Shown piece after piece: positions 1,239-49,454 of a DNA stretch of 50,985 bases; position 1 is the first letter of the stretch, and every line of letters begins with the position of its first letter. A program made the translations under genes and the position numbers. The stretch lies in IMG/VR virus record IMGVR_UViG_2721755720_000003, one strand, 5' to 3'. Below the pieces are notes generated by a model that saw nothing but the letters and a program-made list of their open reading frames with translations, was not told the origin of the DNA and ran no database searches. The DNA is from a virus (Duplodnaviria; Heunggongvirae; Uroviricota; Caudoviricetes).

Positions 1239-1814
1239 CTACGGCAGTGCTGGCCATTCAATATCCTGTGAAGTTGACGTATCAACACGGTTCAGCAATA
1301 CCCGATACTTTTTCCATGCTTCCAGCAACGAGATTTCTTCCTCCGTTGCAATTTCCAGATCTGCAGCATCCTGAAGCGGCGCAATATGCTCACTGGCTAC
1401 CTGCATCAGGTTGTTTTTTGTTTCTTCCGCCTCCCGGATCCGGAACAGTTTTTCTGCTTCCGTATCCTTCACCCAGGCTGTGCCGTTCCACTTCTGAAAC
1501 TCCCCTTCCGGCGATAACCAGGTAACATTTTCCGGTAACGGACCGAGTTCAGAAATAAATAACGCGTCGCCGGAAGCCACGTCATAAACCGTTTTACCCC
1601 GATGATCTTCAACGAGATGCCACGATGCCTCATCACTGTTGAAAACAGCCACGAAGCCTGCCGGAATATCTGGCGGTGCAATATCGGTACTGTTTGCTGG
1701 CAGACCTGTATGAGGCGGAATATATGCATCACCTTCACCAATAAATTCATTAGTTCCGGCCAGCAGATTATAAATTGTTATGGTCCGTGGTTGTTCACTC
1801 ATTCTGAATACCAT
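1239..1814 (-). CDS. tfaR: Tail fiber assembly protein Tfa
   Basis: 191 aa, near-identical to lambda Tfa as recalled ([12 protein letters not shown]...); ATG overlaps the stf stop (TAATG). Confidence 0.9.
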
Positions 1815-15454: not shown

Positions 15455-15820
15455 ATGATTGATGTCTTAGGGCCGGAGAAACGCAGACGGCGTACGACAC
15501 AGGAAAAGATCGCAATTGTTCAGCAGAGCTTTGAACCGGGGATGACGGTCTCCCTCGTTGCCCGGCAACATGGTGTAGCAGCCAGCCAGTTATTTCTCTG
15601 GCGTAAGCAATACCAGGAAGGAAGTCTTACTGCTGTCGCCGCCGGAGAACAGGTTGTTCCTGCCTCTGAACTTGCTGCCGCCATGAAGCAGATTAAAGAA
15701 CTCCAGCGCCTGCTCGGCAAAAAAACGATGGAAAATGAACTCCTCAAAGAAGCCGTTGAATATGGACGGGCAAAAAAGTGGATAGCGCACGCGCCCTTAT
15801 TGCCCGGGGATGGGGAGTAA
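15455..15820 (+). CDS. insC: IS2 OrfA / InsC (HTH transposase N-terminal part)
   Basis: 121 aa [24 protein letters not shown]…; A6G frameshift window at 15772-15778. Confidence 0.95.
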
Positions 15821-16683
15821 GCTTAGTCAGCCGTTGTCTCCGGGTGTCGCGTGCGCAGTTGCACGTCATTCTCAGACGAACCGATGACTGGATGGATGGC
15901 CGCCGCAGTCGTCACACTGATGATACGGATGTGCTTCTCCGTATACACCATGTTATCGGAGAGCTGCCCACGTATGGTTATCGTCGGGTATGGGCGCTGC
16001 TTCGCAGACAGGCAGAACTTGATGGTATGCCTGCGATCAATGCCAAACGTGTTTACCGGATCATGCGCCAGAATGCGCTGTTGCTTGAGCGAAAACCTGC
16101 TGTACCGCCATCGAAACGGGCACATACAGGCAGAGTGGCCGTGAAAGAAAGCAATCAGCGATGGTGCTCTGACGGGTTCGAGTTCTGCTGTGATAACGGA
16201 GAGAGACTGCGTGTCACGTTCGCGCTGGACTGCTGTGATCGTGAGGCACTGCACTGGGCGGTGACTACCGGCGGCTTCAACAGTGAAACAGTACAGGACG
16301 TCATGCTGGGAGCGGTGGAACGCCGCTTCGGCAACGATCTTCCGTCGTCTCCAGTGGAGTGGCTGACGGATAATGGTTCATGCTACCGGGCTAATGAAAC
16401 ACGCCAGTTCGCCCGGATGTTGGGACTTGAACCGAAGAACACGGCGGTGCGGAGTCCGGAGAGTAACGGAATAGCAGAGAGCTTCGTGAAAACGATAAAG
16501 CGTGACTACATCAGTATCATGCCCAAACCAGACGGGTTAACGGCAGCAAAGAACCTTGCAGAGGCGTTCGAGCATTATAACGAATGGCATCCGCATAGTG
16601 CGCTGGGTTATCGCTCGCCACGGGAATATCTGCGGCAGCGGGCTTGTAATGGGTTAAGTGATAACAGATGTCTGGAAATATAG
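15778..16683 (+). CDS. insD: IS2 OrfB / InsD (DDE transposase catalytic part)
   Basis: 301-aa ORF overlapping insC in the -1 frame; recognised as IS2 InsD. Confidence 0.95.
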
Positions 16684-32754: not shown

Positions 32755-33340
32755 TTTTCCTCACATATGTCATATAGTAAAGGATTATATATACCGTTGT
32801 TTTGGACGCTCAAACAGCGAATCAGATCAAATAAAACGCACATTTGTTAACATTTACACAAAGTCTGCGTGGGATATTCTGAAAGAATATCCATAATGTG
32901 GAGAGAATCTATTGAAGTGCATGGTGCCGGGTGCCTCTCGGTGAACAAAATGTTCGTGATACCTGTCGGCGACAGAAAAGGTTAATGGTATCACCCCACC
33001 GCACAGGGGGATTCACCATGCAGGAGTTTTCTTAGCAAACTCACTGCGCGCCCGGCAACTCCCAACCACATAAAATGCGGAGTTTGTGGCATTTATGCAT
33101 ATAACTCGCAGGAATTATCTTAAAAAACTGATGTCGATCCGGATTAAAAAGAAGCAGGTCATCATCAGATGACTGGAAAAAAGGAAAACAAAAAATACTC
33201 ATCATACAGTTTTGATTGCAGGGATGAGCCTGCTATGCACAATATGCAGAATATAAGCAAGATAAAAATATGCAGGCATATTATTTCGGATTTTGTTATT
33301 AACACAACCTTTTTAATAATCATTTGGCATACAATAAACC

Positions 33341-35227: not shown

Positions 35228-35502
35228 TTCTCAATCTCTCGATGGCGCAGTGCAGCAGATGCCAGTTGTTCAGGCTGACGTATAAAGTATAAATAAACTG
35301 GTTCCAGTGTAAAGCCCCCACATTGATGGAATAAAAATCAAACAATAGATTGCTGGGATAAAAATACAACGCTTATTATTAAAAGCGGTTAGACAAATTA
35401 AATTTTAATGTTATGCAAATCTGCCAGATTAGCATAATATCTCATTTGAAAACCGCTGAAATAACAATCTTATCAGGATTAATCATATTAAGGTGAGTAA
35501 AT

Positions 35503-35589
35503 ATGGAAAACAACAAATCTGCACATTACGCTCCTTTTTTATCTATAATACTTTTTGTATTTTGTTGTGTATGGGCGGTATTTTTATAA
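35503..35589 (+). CDS. Candidate small hydrophobic peptide (28 aa, single predicted TM), opposite strand to flanking genes
   Basis: AAGGTGAG RBS 7 nt upstream of the ATG; MENNKSAHYAPFLSIILFVFCCVWAVFL; followed by a strong hairpin at 35610-35629. Confidence 0.3.
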   Translation: MENNKSAHYAPFLSIILFVFCCVWAVFL

Positions 35590-35609
35590 AACACACCCAC
35601 AAATAAATC

Positions 35610-35629
35610 AAACCCGCTACAGCGGGTTT
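35610..35629. terminator. Bidirectional intrinsic terminator between the S8 peptidase gene and the small + strand ORF
   Basis: AAACCCGC-TACA-GCGGGTTT, 8-bp stem with T-rich flanks on both strands. Confidence 0.55.
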
Positions 35630-35643
35630 GATTTATATAGTTG

Positions 35644-37908
35644 TTATACGGAAACTGGCACACGAGCAGGCAATGGATAGTGAGCCCAGTTATTAGCATT
35701 TAAAGCTCTTACGCCATCAGCATAAACTTGTGTGTTTCCATCTAATGATTTTAAAGTTACTACAATAGTTACAGGTAAAGGCTCCATTAAGGCCGGTTCA
35801 TTCGCTCTCAACGTTGTTTTAGCCTGAAGAGCCCAGTTACCCGAAGTAATTCCTTTATTAAATGCCTTGCGATGAATTTTTACTGGTGACCACTTTCCAC
35901 CATGCTCAATTTGAGCTCTCTCATATCCAGATTGACCGTTTTCTCCTTCCATAGGCACTTTTCCTTTTATAGTATTATTCTCAATTAAGCCAAAACTTAG
36001 CTCTACGTTCGCGCGAACATATTCACTGCCGGCATTAGGATTCAGTGGTGGTGCATATGCAGCAGTAATTACAATCTCACCTTTAAATTTTCCATTTTGA
36101 ATAAGTGCCGATGGTATGGGATAGTTTTCCTTTCTCCACCTCATCCCAGGAACCAAGAATGTTTGGAAAATCAGAGTAAACCTATCATCACTATCATATA
36201 AGGTCTCAATAACTTCATTAGGAATTCCCGCTCCCAAATAGCGTCTTTCACTTGGCGAGTAATCAGGAGAAGATAATTGAGCGGAATGAATTAATAATGC
36301 TTTAATCAATGATGGTGAAACATTAAAGTCTGAATTAGTGGCTATTCTCTGCCATGTATGCGCAGCTAAACTTGCCACAATTGGAGCAGCAAAACTAGTA
36401 CCAAAATTAGAGCAAAGCCTATTATCTGGCCCTACGACCTTTAAACTGCTTGCTCCTACATTCCAAGGTCTATGAACCCCACCGCCAGCATGGATTATAT
36501 CTGGCTTTGGAGTAAATACAGGCCCAGGGCCACGACGAGTATATGGTGTCGGTGTTCCAATTTCACTTAAAGCATCATTAGCTTCCATATGAGAAACTGA
36601 ACCAACTGTTAGTGCTCGGACTGACTCTCCAGGAGAGGAAATTAAATCAGCACCTCCAAGCGGTTCAGGATTTGGCCATGTACGTATAGGTTCATCTACA
36701 TAATTACCTGCAGCAACTACAAACAAAATACCAAATTTATCGCTGAGCCGATCTAACTCCATCGCAAAATCACTAAACGTCTGCTCATTACATGGTCCGC
36801 CTCCCAAAGACAAATTCCAGACTTTTATATCTGGTCTTTTATTTACAGCATCTGCTAGCCTCAGAATTAAATCTGATATATAAGATCCATTTTCATCTAA
36901 GGCACAAACATCATGGATTTTAGATTTTGTATCAGGAATCCATGGATGATTGTCATTTAAAAAATGAGCGCCTGATATCAATGAAGACACCATAGTCCCA
37001 TGTTCATAACTCGTATCAGGAGGAATTACGTATGTTTCCCTACTCACTACCCAAGGAGTAATTGTTGCCGCGATGGGGCTTACCCCAGTGTCAAATACAG
37101 CAACAATGGGTAATTCTTCTGATGGTACGGGAAAGCTATTTGTTTCAATGCCAACAGAATCACTTACACTAACCGGGAATGCTGAATATTTTGGTTCTGG
37201 AATTAACGTTCTTATACCCGGGTAATTAATGAGAATGTCTAATATATATCTATCATTTGGGGATAAATCCATTATCCTTAATAAGGGAAGACCACATTTT
37301 TGTCTAATCTCATCATATTTAACTCCGTGTTGTTCTAATATAGAAATAACGTTTTCATAGTTGTTGTAAGTTGCATCTTCACCTGTGTACTCAAATAGTC
37401 GTACAAGGATGTTTGATGATTCAAACAAACCATCAGTGCCTCCTGGAACCTTCCTATTCTCATCCCAAGGTTCAATGCGCTCAATCGCGCTTAGATTAGC
37501 CAAAATCGCTTTAATATTCCGATGTAAAATAACTGACTCTAATACGTCAAAACAGCCGGCATGAGCAGCAACCAACATTTCATCTATTTTGGCATGACCG
37601 GCATTTTGCAATCCAGCCTCTTGAGCAATTTTGTTCGGCCTATGCGTTTTGGCTATTCCCTGGTCTCTTAATTTGAAAACCAAAGTACCCAAGCTTCCAG
37701 GGTACTCTGAAAGTTTGGATTCTAAATAATGTTTACTGGTTGTTAAATTTCTTACTAGCCCTTGTCTATATTCGGCTGTTACATCAACCAATACCTTTGC
37801 CCCACCGCCAGCGTTTACTATTGCACCCAAGTCACTACTGGAAAAAGGGATTCTTAACATTGGGTTTGTAACTTTTGCGTTACTAAACTGTGTACCCCTT
37901 CTGCTCAT
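35644..37908 (-). CDS. Subtilisin-like S8 serine peptidase (IetS-like)
   Basis: 754 aa; catalytic triad motifs VAVFDTGV (Asp), HGTMVSS (His), GTSFAAPIVAS (Ser); overlaps the upstream ATPase gene. Confidence 0.85.
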   Translation of the reverse strand: MSRRGTQFSNAKVTNPMLRIPFSSSDLGAIVNAGGGAKVLVDVTAEYRQGLVRNLTTSKHYLESKLSEYPGSLGTLVFKLRDQGIAKTHRPNKIAQEAGLQNAGHAKIDEMLVAAHAGCFDVLESVILHRNIKAILANLSAIERIEPWDENRKVPGGTDGLFESSNILVRLFEYTGEDATYNNYENVISILEQHGVKYDEIRQKCGLPLLRIMDLSPNDRYILDILINYPGIRTLIPEPKYSAFPVSVSDSVGIETNSFPVPSEELPIVAVFDTGVSPIAATITPWVVSRETYVIPPDTSYEHGTMVSSLISGAHFLNDNHPWIPDTKSKIHDVCALDENGSYISDLILRLADAVNKRPDIKVWNLSLGGGPCNEQTFSDFAMELDRLSDKFGILFVVAAGNYVDEPIRTWPNPEPLGGADLISSPGESVRALTVGSVSHMEANDALSEIGTPTPYTRRGPGPVFTPKPDIIHAGGGVHRPWNVGASSLKVVGPDNRLCSNFGTSFAAPIVASLAAHTWQRIATNSDFNVSPSLIKALLIHSAQLSSPDYSPSERRYLGAGIPNEVIETLYDSDDRFTLIFQTFLVPGMRWRKENYPIPSALIQNGKFKGEIVITAAYAPPLNPNAGSEYVRANVELSFGLIENNTIKGKVPMEGENGQSGYERAQIEHGGKWSPVKIHRKAFNKGITSGNWALQAKTTLRANEPALMEPLPVTIVVTLKSLDGNTQVYADGVRALNANNWAHYPLPARVPVSV

Positions 37909-39037
37909 ATGCTCCTGACTCCTTCAGAATGTTTGAAATTACTCTTGATGTAAGTTTGTACAAATTAGCAAGAACTCTGATAGAAAATAATTTTTTATCT
38001 TTAGAACGTAACCAACGAATTTCATCTTCGTAAGTGCTTAAATTTACACCTTCCATAAGCGATTGAGCAAGATACAAACGCCTATACAATTTATGGTGAT
38101 TTATCACACTTGCACCTTCAATAACTGCATCCCTACGTGCATCCAAGCTCACCTGTTCAATTATTGCTCCGGATAATCCTTCCGATTTTCTTGATAAATC
38201 ACTTAAATCTAGATCGCTACATATCATATTCTTTAAACGATTTTTCCAAATTAACTCTCTCTGATGTATGTCAGGCAGAGGCATTGGAATTCTGAAGCTA
38301 AATCGCCTCCAGATTGCAGGATCCAGAAGTTGCTCATGGTTAGTTGAGGCAATAATTACCGTATCCTCTGATGCCGCATCCATATTCTGCAATAGTGAAA
38401 TGACAACTCGCTGAAGCTCACCTATATCTCTCTCATTACCTCTTGCTCCAGCTAAAGCATCAAATTCGTCTAAAAAAAGCACTGATGGCCTCTGCATTAC
38501 ATAATCGAAAACCTGTCTAAGATTTTTGCTGGTTTGTCCCAATAAACTACTAATCAAAGTATCGCAACGCACTGTAAGAAGTGGAAAATCTAAGCGGGTA
38601 GCGATGTACTTAGATAACATAGTCTTACCTGTTCCTGGCTTTCCATACACGAGCATACGACTCGGCAATGCTGCATCAGCTTTAACAAACTCATCATAAC
38701 GTTGAACATTAGTGATAAACTCTTCAACACGGGTACTGATTGCTGCAGGCAGAAAAATCTCTGAACTGTCTAATTTAGGATAACTGACATCAACAGTGTT
38801 GAGTCGACTATCAATATCTACCGGTAATGAGCCCAGAGATATCCCACCTCCAGCCCTTTGAGCTCCTGCCAACGCCTGGGGAGCTCTAAGCAACCTTTCT
38901 CTTATCATTCTGGCTTGCTTGACCTCCCCTTTTTGTTCGAGCTTATCTGCCAGCAACCCAGCATAATTACTAGCCATCGAAGCATTTGCCTTTGTTGCAC
39001 CTTCAATGATTTTTAACACTTCTGATAAATAATCCAT
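37883..39037 (-). CDS. AAA+ ATPase (classic clade; IetA-like)
   Basis: 384 aa; Walker A GKPGTGKT, Walker B VLFLDEFD, sensor-1 ASTNH, Arg finger region PAIWRRF; GGGAG RBS. Confidence 0.85.
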   Translation of the reverse strand: MDYLSEVLKIIEGATKANASMASNYAGLLADKLEQKGEVKQARMIRERLLRAPQALAGAQRAGGGISLGSLPVDIDSRLNTVDVSYPKLDSSEIFLPAAISTRVEEFITNVQRYDEFVKADAALPSRMLVYGKPGTGKTMLSKYIATRLDFPLLTVRCDTLISSLLGQTSKNLRQVFDYVMQRPSVLFLDEFDALAGARGNERDIGELQRVVISLLQNMDAASEDTVIIASTNHEQLLDPAIWRRFSFRIPMPLPDIHQRELIWKNRLKNMICSDLDLSDLSRKSEGLSGAIIEQVSLDARRDAVIEGASVINHHKLYRRLYLAQSLMEGVNLSTYEDEIRWLRSKDKKLFSIRVLANLYKLTSRVISNILKESGAYEQKGYTV

Positions 39038-39230
39038 TCAACACTCCCACAACAAAAAGCCACAGCAATCAAAAAATGAGCACGCAGAATCAAAATGCTC
39101 TCTAATCGTAACGCATTTTGAGATTTTTGATACGTTTTTTTGGGATTATGTAACGCCAAATGGTCATTTTGTGTCAGAAAAATAAATCTTAGTACCGAGA
39201 ATATGTAGCTTCCATCCTTCATCGTTCTAT

Positions 39231-39677
39231 TCATCCCTGATCTCCAAGCCTCTCTCGAAAACCATTCTGATAAAACGCCAGCACACGCTGCATAACTTCA
39301 CTCTTCCGGCACTCGCGACAGATTATGTTCAGACGCCTGTCGTAACGGCGTATTTCTCCGTCTGGTAATGACCAGATAAGGTCAGGATCAACCACAACCG
39401 GTTTCTTCACCTTTGTCCTTGATAGTTTTTTGCGGGCGTTTTGCCAGTCTTTACGCGCCTGCTCAGACGGGAATAATCCGTAGCCTGAATTGTAAACATC
39501 ACCACTGGCGACTAGTTCTCTGGCGAGAGTGCTTATGTAATACCTTGATGCACCGGTTTTAGCCTCCAGAGCCCGTAACGTCTCGCGACCGCTCAGAGGT
39601 ACAAGTTCAACAACCTGTCCTTTAATTTTTTCTCGCTCTTCTGGTGTAAATACTTTTGCCATAGGTGCCTCCGGCAA
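39231..39677 (-). CDS. Hypothetical protein, possible HTH
   Basis: 148-aa ORF between the replication genes and the defense cassette. Confidence 0.45.
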   Translation of the reverse strand: MPEAPMAKVFTPEEREKIKGQVVELVPLSGRETLRALEAKTGASRYYISTLARELVASGDVYNSGYGLFPSEQARKDWQNARKKLSRTKVKKPVVVDPDLIWSLPDGEIRRYDRRLNIICRECRKSEVMQRVLAFYQNGFRERLGDQG

Positions 39678-49072: not shown

Positions 49073-49264
49073 AGATATGACAATGTTAAACCATGTCCAT
49101 TTTGTGGTTGTCCATCAGTAACGGTGAAAGCCATTTCAGGATATTACCGAGCGAAGTGTAACGGATGCGAATCCCGAACCGGTTATGGTGGAAGTGAAAA
49201 AGAAGCACTCGAAAGATGGAATAAACGAACCACTGGAAATAATAATGGAGGTGTTCATGTATAA
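49073..49264 (+). CDS. ralR: RalR / Lar restriction-alleviation protein (type I TA toxin, DNase)
   Basis: 64 aa MRYDNVKPCPFCGCPSVTV… with Cys4 cluster. Confidence 0.85.
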   Translation, partial: RYDNVKPCPFCGCPSVTVKAISGYYRAKCNGCESRTGYGGSEKEALERWNKRTTGNNNGGVHV

Positions 49265-49454
49265 AATTACCGCCACTATTGAAAAGGAAGGTGGCACTCC
49301 TACTAACTGGACAAGATATTCAAAATCTAAACTAACGAAATCAGAATGCGAAAAAATGCTCTCAGGTAAAATTTCCAGAGAGCAGAAAGTAAAACTGATA
49401 AATTTTAATTGCGAGAAACTTCAGTCCTCGAGAATTGCATTGTATTCAAATTAA
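49257..49454 (+). CDS. ydaC: YdaC-like small protein
   Basis: 65 aa from MYKITATIEKEGG…; overlaps the ralR stop. Confidence 0.55.
   Translation: MYKITATIEKEGGTPTNWTRYSKSKLTKSECEKMLSGKISREQKVKLINFNCEKLQSSRIALYSN

Follow-up and report, generated by a model that had tools for sequence, protein, structure and literature searches.

An intact IetAS gene pair as low-GC cargo of a Rac-type lambdoid prophage of Escherichia coli

The window analyzed here, a 50,985-nucleotide stretch of DNA from a Caudoviricetes record, carries at 35644–39037 two minus-strand genes that, judged from their sequences, are an intact and apparently functional copy of the two-gene IetAS system (Gao_Iet; IteA/IteS at NCBI), an anti-phage system of toxin–antitoxin type. 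Its carrier is a Rac-type lambdoid prophage of E. coli, inserted at ttcA, with the cassette as cargo of the nin-like region. We assign a probability of about 0.9 to this explanation as a whole, namely, a canonical IetAS system borne as a low-GC prophage moron, with a mechanism inferred from published homologues. The system itself is already known: it is catalogued, E. coli strain M18 has DNA 100% identical to it on which RefSeq names iteA (WP_000385105.1) and iteS (WP_000091105.1), and a prophage location for IetAS in E. coli is already in print (10.1101/2022.08.21.504612).

Profile matches and comparison with described systems

The upstream gene, iteA/ietA (37883–39037, minus strand; putative antitoxin/regulator), encodes a 384-amino-acid classic-clade AAA+ ATPase, as called from its ORF and from PADLOC, NCBIfam, and Pfam AAA (PF00004) matches, and the downstream gene, iteS/ietS (35644–37908, minus strand; putative toxin/effector), encodes a 754-amino-acid S8 subtilase. 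The initial annotation had likened this pair to IetA/IetS and had left family membership to an HMM comparison, which was run here. Among the several IetA and IetS sub-models of PADLOC, the two proteins were closest to PDLC02196 (IetA; E = 8.9e-143, 474 bits, residues 1–374 on profile positions 1–371 of 374) and PDLC02197 (IetS; E = 8.7e-302, 1001 bits, residues 12–753 on positions 3–748 of 749). Furthermore, IetA scored 526.6 bits against NCBIfam NF042959 ("anti-phage ATPase IteA"), above the equivalog cut-off of 510, and IetS scored 1046.1 bits against NF042956 ("S8 family anti-phage peptidase IteS"), above the cut-off of 900. These full-length matches above curated cut-offs, together with the RefSeq labels on identical DNA, bear out the proposed likeness, as do homologous pairs of matching sizes, order, and overlap in five other genera. 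In the window, as in those genera, the genes are co-oriented with ietA upstream of ietS.

When set against IetAS/Gao_Iet (Gao et al. 2020), the pair displayed no structural difference, with gene order, overlap, motifs, and mobile-element location all in agreement. IetA/IetS of pTiC58 and SgiA/SgiT of Salmonella genomic island 1 (SGI1) resemble it in architecture (AAA ATPase antitoxin and subtilase toxin) and in gene order, and a toxin–antitoxin logic is therefore suggested, although these systems, found on a plasmid and on an integrative mobilizable element, respectively, were studied for stability and not for phage defense. The ietHAS system (Liu-DS4; PMC13069673) shares the IetA and IetS modules, the need for protease activity, and the antitoxin behavior of IetA, but it includes an extra essential SNF2-type helicase, IetH. 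No helicase gene, of the SNF2 family or otherwise, was found beside the window's cassette; the neighbors are DUF977/Ren-like, DUF1627, DUF1367/NinB-like, and YbcO genes, all of them devoid of a helicase domain. In phage resources, record ON470595 labels IetA "cell division protein FtsH," and the PHROGs families that cover both proteins at full length are annotated "unknown function."

Domain architecture of the ATPase and the protease

IetA consists of a short helical N-terminal region, an AAA core (residues 128–253), and a lid (about 275–315). The Walker A (GKPGTGKT, 132–139), Walker B (LFLDEFD, 187–193), and sensor-1 (ASTNH, 230–234) motifs read from the DNA by the initial annotation were all located, and its arginine-finger region could be assigned to R244/R245, which align with both conserved SRH arginines of p97 D2 (RPGR). 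The best solved-structure relatives of residues ~99–310 were p97/Cdc48 D2, PAN/Rpt, and FtsH (E of about 1e-53), classic-clade AAA+ unfoldases with which IetA has the Walker A and B motifs, sensor-1, and the two SRH arginines in common. Unlike these proteins, IetA has a single AAA module, a short unique N-terminal region, and no fused protease. The aromatic-hydrophobic-Gly pore-loop-1 of processive unfoldases was likewise not found in IetA, which has S164-L-L-G167 at the position of M-W-F-G in p97 D2, a segment resembling the non-aromatic K-L-A-G of p97 D1. Because this loop carries no aromatic residue, an unfoldase role is not assured; the result would weaken the label of canonical unfoldase for IetA while leaving its AAA+ membership untouched.

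IetS combines an N-terminal alpha/beta region (~45–245), an S8 core (~268–560), and a beta-rich C-terminal domain (~570–740). The core scored above the gathering threshold of Pfam PF00082 and presented its catalytic residues in D-H-S order, namely, D273 (VFDTG), H303 (HGT), and S505 (GTSFA), with N402 (AAGNY) as the oxyanion residue, so that the triad reported by the initial annotation is indeed intact. All four residues were invariant across 40 homologues at 50 to 84% identity. The N-terminal region may be formed by two tandem beta-alpha-beta-beta-alpha-beta modules, the arrangement of I9-type subtilase propeptides, and bears an invariant AK-x-HRP motif at 86–91. In comparison with subtilases that have accessory domains (Tk-SP 3afg, KP-43 1wmd, and pro-subtilisin E 3whi), IetS is distinguished by its cytoplasmic location, by this conserved N-terminal region of ~260 residues, and by its C-terminal beta domain. 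Sequence searches detected no solved relatives of either the ~260-residue N-terminal region or the ~180-residue C-terminal beta domain, and a search for solved structures of IetA or IetS themselves returned generic AAA+ and subtilase relatives only.

Cassette layout and prophage slot

The iteA stop and iteS start overlap by 26 nt (37883–37908), as first reported in the initial annotation, and an AGGAG Shine-Dalgarno sequence lies inside iteA (~37913–37917), 5 nt ahead of the iteS ATG. This combination of overlap and internal ribosome-binding site makes translational coupling of iteA and iteS probable. The same 26-nt overlap occurs in the Morganella and Klebsiella loci, and those of Pseudomonas and Burkholderia are longer. 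Upstream of iteA, a leader of ~117 nt (39038–39154, minus strand) that includes a GGGAG ribosome-binding site moves together with the cassette, as it aligned with that of a Citrobacter cassette preceded by a different gene. Farther upstream, junction DNA (39155–39266, minus strand) separates the leader from the end of the DUF977-backbone homology; it takes in the final ~36 nt of the DUF977 ORF, where the sequence departs from that of sibling prophages. A 73-amino-acid ORF at 39013–39234, called "kinase (fragment)" in ON470595, was considered as a third gene and set aside, having no family match, no PGAP call, and no conservation in the Citrobacter locus.

A search of the minus strand upstream of iteA for sigma-70 promoters gave no match of at least 9/12, and expression of iteAS in the lysogen is putative for this reason; GTTACA-N16-TATCAA in the leader may be a conserved promoter, at best a weak one. 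The negative promoter search is one of the observations expected of an inert remnant in which intact-looking ORFs have lost expression or activity, as are the IS2 element and several pseudogenes of the host prophage and the IS-disrupted or split copies seen in a few genomes, including some of iteS. We nevertheless regard such a remnant as very unlikely, as neither ORF is truncated and no catalytic or nucleotide-binding residue has been lost, the leader and ribosome-binding sites are conserved, and at least 99% identity is maintained across 78 genomes from diverse hosts and sources.

Downstream, a hairpin resembling an intrinsic terminator (35603–35636; 15-bp stem) begins 8 nt past the iteS stop codon and folds at −26 kcal/mol as RNA (z = −5.9 versus shuffles). 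The strong terminator and AT-rich spacer noted at the outset are thus both present, but neither is specific to the cassette. A counterpart of the hairpin sits after the hok module of sibling prophages and the hairpin is therefore probably derived from the backbone, while the spacer (35228–35590) is conserved prophage backbone that is also found in siblings with other cargo. The hok module of these siblings is absent at the window's locus; no RNA family or hok/sok remnant reached gathering score in the spacer, and sub-threshold RNA-family matches nearby corresponded to the terminator hairpin only.

The cassette occupies a slot between Ren-like and NinB-like genes (the lambda ninA position), and the initial annotation was right to locate it between the replication genes and Q. 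The lower GC content noted there was also upheld, at 0.40 (GC3, 0.27–0.32) compared to 0.49–0.50 (GC3, 0.44–0.61) for adjoining phage genes. Of 5426 complete E. coli genomes, 78 had the cassette at an identity of at least 99%, and in every one of them it lay in this prophage slot, whereas its flanks were found in >4000 genomes. Low GC and GC3 and this rarity relative to the flanks point to a foreign, horizontally acquired cargo. Induced phage vB_EcoS-683R6 also carries it at 99.3% identity. Neither ECOR52 nor any other experimentally used strain was among those of the 78 carriers that were listed. The absence of the cassette from K-12 Rac, stated correctly at first, is uninformative because a deletion in K-12 Rac has taken out the whole DUF977-to-Q segment and left the lysis gene fused with a truncated ydaW (DUF1627).

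Since a genome-contig search with IetA alone returned one locus, wider context was taken from contigs encoding homologues. The same pair was found in lambdoid prophages of Klebsiella and Citrobacter, at a prophage edge in Morganella, on a Burkholderia chromosome, and in a Pseudomonas island with Fic, NERD, and AAA_15/21 genes. In sibling prophages, the slot holds an OLD/PtuA/AriA-like ATPase-nuclease with a C5 methyltransferase, a BstA-like KilA-N protein, or an Sll1717 ATPase, and the ren/ninB slot of Rac-type phages behaves as a defense-cargo hotspot.

The surroundings also bear on whether the pair could work for the prophage itself during lytic growth, for instance in virion maturation as a chaperone-protease or in the degradation of host proteins during takeover. 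With the orientation of the early-right operon, and with replication genes on one side and a Q-like antiterminator on the other, the cassette would be transcribed upon induction, and full-length phage families exist in PHROGs for both proteins. However, the vast majority of prophages of the same backbone do without the cassette, its composition is foreign, the head and tail genes are distant from it, and Pseudomonas and Burkholderia have the pair in non-phage settings, which together render a lytic function highly improbable.

Putative role and control of the protease

Functional data on IetAS defense and toxicity come from pTiC58, SGI1, and B. cereus, homologues that may be distant from the window's pair. 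As cited in PMC5006074 and PMC13069673, Iet was first reported (Yamamoto et al. 2009) as a toxin–antitoxin system for the stability of the Agrobacterium plasmid pTiC58. For SGI1, the S026 ATPase neutralizes the toxicity that the S025 protease has in E. coli, and sgiAT stabilizes the island (Huguet et al. 2016, PMC5006074). The ietAS pair of B. cereus works through abortive infection, and expression of yosG of phage SPbeta makes it toxic (10.1101/2022.08.27.505566). Defense by ietHAS requires protease activity, and ietA mutants of that system could not be cloned (Nucleic Acids Res 2026, PMC13069673).

Building on these homologues, we propose that IetS would be a cytoplasmic subtilisin-like protease that is toxic when unrestrained, and that IetA, translated just ahead of it from one mRNA, would hold it harmless in an ATP-dependent manner, most likely by binding or remodeling. 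A phage-infection cue, which in the single studied case is a specific phage protein, would lift this restraint, and freed IetS would then cut cellular and/or phage proteins, leading to abortive infection and protection of the lysogen population. Stabilization of the prophage in toxin–antitoxin fashion could arise as a by-product.

That by-product might instead be the main selected role, the pair acting in prophage addiction (post-segregational killing or anti-curing) and not in defense against other phages. The early plasmid and island work fits such a role, as does the confinement of the enterobacterial cassette to mobile elements; moreover, ietAS of E. coli ECOR52, which may differ from the window's allele, gave limited protection when tested alone against a 29-phage panel (10.1101/2022.08.21.504612). 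We consider addiction as the main role unlikely, if by no means negligible, given that homologues protect against phages, one of them through abortive infection in response to a defined trigger from the phage, that sibling prophages fill the same slot with other defense-type genes, and that sgiAT expressed from its own promoter produced no post-segregational killing (PMC5006074). Addiction and defense are compatible with each other.

Returning to defense by a restrained protease, a more speculative and rather doubtful proposal is that IetS is a cytoplasmic, zymogen-like subtilase whose conserved N-terminal region serves as a covalently linked, propeptide-like inhibitor or sensor, with IetA, given its non-aromatic pore loop, as the holdase or remodeler of that region and not a degradative unfoldase. 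This proposal concerns the build and control of IetS, ground that has no earlier description.

The value of these results for genome annotation is small because the NCBI pipeline already labels iteA/iteS, even if phage-record annotations still mislabel IetAS genes (ON470595 and PHROGs). They provide a clean example of a prophage-borne defense system in the ren/ninB slot, which also hosts less-characterized cargo, and the near-clonal E. coli allele offers a practical starting point for work on the IetAS mechanism. Should the zymogen-like proposal be true, this abundant, monomorphic allele would be a convenient native model in which to study that mechanism.

A canonical IetAS cassette

The initial annotation placed an IetAS-like defense cassette at 35644-39037, and both this observation and its interpretation proved correct. 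Two ORFs on the minus strand, iteA (37883-39037, 384 aa) and iteS (35644-37908, 754 aa), encoding IetA and IetS, were found exactly at the coordinates it gave, with the same sizes and 26-nt overlap; an AGGAG ribosome-binding site lies within iteA, 5 nt upstream of the iteS ATG. The profile comparison that it had proposed gave unambiguous matches for both proteins, with full-length hits of IetA to PADLOC PDLC02196 (474 bits) and of IetS to PDLC02197 (1001 bits), and scores beyond the cut-offs of the NCBIfam equivalogs NF042959, "anti-phage ATPase IteA" (526.6 bits, cut-off 510), and NF042956, "S8 family anti-phage peptidase IteS" (1046.1 bits, cut-off 900). The sole Pfam matches were AAA (PF00004) for IetA and Peptidase_S8 (PF00082) for IetS. 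Furthermore, from 15228 onward the window matches the E. coli M18 genome base for base, without a mismatch in 35,758 nt; there, RefSeq names the genes iteA (WP_000385105.1) and iteS (WP_000091105.1). The cassette is a canonical member of an already catalogued system that current annotation names as such. Phage-side annotation trails behind: the phage record ON470595 mislabels IetA as "cell division protein FtsH" (locus L002, 10653-11807), and the full-length PHROGs families matching IetA and IetS, phrog_3757 and phrog_3964, are both labelled "unknown function".

All ATPase motifs previously read in IetA are present, namely, Walker A GKPGTGKT (residues 132-139), Walker B LFLDEFD (187-193), sensor-1 ASTNH (230-234), and two SRH arginines, R244 and R245, aligned with the conserved pair of p97 D2 (RPGR in the alignment). 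The nearest solved structures are the classic-clade unfoldases p97/Cdc48 D2, PAN, and FtsH (E about 1e-53). The pore-loop-1 position, S-L-L-G (residues 164-167, window about 38537-38548, minus strand), lacks the aromatic residue usual in AAA+ unfoldases that translocate their substrates and is closer in kind to p97 D1 (K-L-A-G) than to p97 D2 (M-W-F-G).

The Asp/His/Ser triad of IetS is likewise intact (D273, H303, and S505) and, together with the oxyanion Asn402, invariant in 40 aligned homologues of 50-84% identity. A confident AlphaFold2 model built from this 40-sequence alignment (pLDDT 82, pTM 0.86) predicts an N-terminal alpha/beta region with two beta-alpha-beta-beta-alpha-beta units (about 45-245), an S8 core (about 268-560), and, from about 570 to 740, a C-terminal domain rich in beta structure. 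By sequence profile, solved structures aligned to positions 269-578 only, leaving a propeptide-like N-terminal region as a candidate reading. Across the alignment, mean identity to the query was highest in the C-terminal domain (0.69), followed by the S8 core (0.64) and the N-terminal region (0.50). Outside the protease core, an N-terminal cluster comprising R81, A86-K87, and H89-R90-P91 (AK-x-HRP; residues 81-91, window about 37636-37668, minus strand) was invariant in 40/40 homologues. Neither a signal peptide nor a transmembrane segment was detected in IetA or IetS.

A variable cargo slot in Rac-type prophages

A Rac-type lambdoid prophage, sited at ttcA, makes up the window; its genes run in the order intR, xisR, ralR/RalA, recET, kilR, sieB, repressor and cro-like genes, ydaT, a ydaU-like gene, ydaV, and DUF1627 and DUF977 (Ren-like) genes, then iteA-iteS, and then DUF1367 (NinB/Orf-like), YbcO, and DUF1133 (Q-like) genes, lysis genes, trkG, terminase, and head and tail genes. 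From the cro-like to the Q-like gene, every gene, iteAS included, lies on one strand. Beyond sieB, kilR, and trkG, the prophage encodes an Ail/Lom protein and the pinR invertase; an IS2 at about 15455-16683 breaks the tail region beside a truncated ydaY, and Rfam matches comprise IS009 (1273-1471, minus strand), the STnc100 sRNA (32865-33051), and the RalA antitoxin sRNA (49263-49429), which adjoins ralR. K-12 Rac was confirmed to be without the cassette, because a deletion joins its truncated DUF1627 gene (ydaW) directly to a lysis gene. The induced phage vB_EcoS-683R6, whose record holds the FtsH mislabelling of IetA, carries a copy at 99.3% identity in the same position.

The operon is, as noted initially, more AT-rich than its surroundings, with 40% GC (GC3 0.27-0.32) versus 49-50% (GC3 0.44-0.61) in flanking phage genes. 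It is followed by a strong hairpin (35603-35636), whose 15-bp stem begins 8 nt past the iteS stop codon (RNA fold -26 kcal/mol, z = -5.9 versus shuffles) and whose counterpart stands after a hok module in sibling prophages, which share the backbone. Toward DUF977, backbone homology ends at about 39255-39265; it restarts at about 35585-35617 on the iteS side. The stretch of about 117 nt just upstream of iteA (39038-39154) belongs to the cassette, since a Citrobacter cassette with a different upstream gene has it too. A 73-aa ORF at 39013-39234 (minus strand), labelled "kinase (fragment)" in ON470595 (L002 11783-12004), is probably spurious; it overlaps the DUF977 stop at its ATG (ATGA) and the iteA start at its end, has no family match, is uncalled by PGAP, and lacks a conserved equivalent in the Citrobacter locus. 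The non-coding spacer at 35228-35590 (about 360 nt, 33% GC), upstream of DUF1367, is conserved backbone in siblings whatever the cargo; it contains two promoter-like sites on the minus strand (35313..35286 and 35509..35482) and no Rfam match.

The slot between the DUF977 and DUF1367 genes (35591-39266 in the window) is the lambda ninA position, and its cargo, some of it less well characterised than IetAS, differs across sibling prophages (comparison loci L003 2566-5760, L004 2968-5437, L005 2564-4858, and L006 2972-5134). Occupants include an OLD/PtuA/AriA-like ATPase-nuclease accompanied by a C5 methyltransferase and a Hok gene; a KilA-N protein whose C-terminal half resembles BstA, plus a 167-aa hypothetical protein; a 689-aa Sll1717-family P-loop ATPase with weak PADLOC candidate matches only; and QueH with a DUF1971 protein, without PADLOC match. 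Hok/Gef genes accompany several of these alternatives. The slot behaves as a defence-cargo hotspot in Rac-type prophages.

Distribution of the cassette and its family

The cassette was present in 78 of 5426 complete E. coli genomes, always single-copy, chromosomal, at least 99% identical, and with the same immediate flanks. Since more than 4000 genomes hold the flanking backbone genes, the cassette is optional cargo. The only divergent iteAS among complete E. coli genomes, additional to these 78, was found in strain CT282 (H174; NZ_CP095798.1 1198897-1202194; 65.8% nucleotide identity), annotated iteA/iteS. Decayed copies occur in F2_81 (H18), 28Eco12 (H101), NR3736 (H103), and B19695 (H157); in one such genome an IS3-family insertion splits the cassette-region match, and in three the iteS region bears two annotations, "S8 family peptidase" and "hypothetical protein", suggestive of a frameshift or stop.

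At least 310 IetS homologues were recovered at E <= 1e-10. The 120 matches listed were nearly all full-length (about 750-770 aa), and the genera include Morganella, Leclercia, Klebsiella, Providencia, Salmonella, Erwinia, Aeromonas, Pseudomonas, Ralstonia, Comamonas, Burkholderia, and Achromobacter. Overlapping AAA and S8 genes, in that order, also occur directly past the replication genes of Klebsiella and Citrobacter lambdoid prophages, next to a Morganella prophage integrase, in an island of Pseudomonas aeruginosa that carries Fic, NERD, and AAA_15/21 genes, and on a Burkholderia chromosome.

A proposed mode of action

Later papers cite IetAS of pTiC58 as a toxin-antitoxin pair of protease toxin and ATPase antitoxin, and in E. 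coli the SGI1 homologue S025 acts as a toxin that S026 neutralises (PMC5006074). B. cereus ietAS protects via abortive infection and becomes toxic once SPbeta yosG is expressed (10.1101/2022.08.27.505566); the helicase-containing variant ietHAS needs protease activity, and its ietA mutants resisted cloning (PMC13069673). The ECOR52 E. coli ietAS gave limited protection on its own, and its authors pointed to prophage location and mutual exclusion with Zorya II (10.1101/2022.08.21.504612). Based on these homologues, the best-supported model is one in which IetA would restrain the cytoplasmic IetS protease in an ATP-dependent manner, a phage cue would free IetS, and the ensuing proteolysis would abort infection, with prophage addiction as a likely side benefit.
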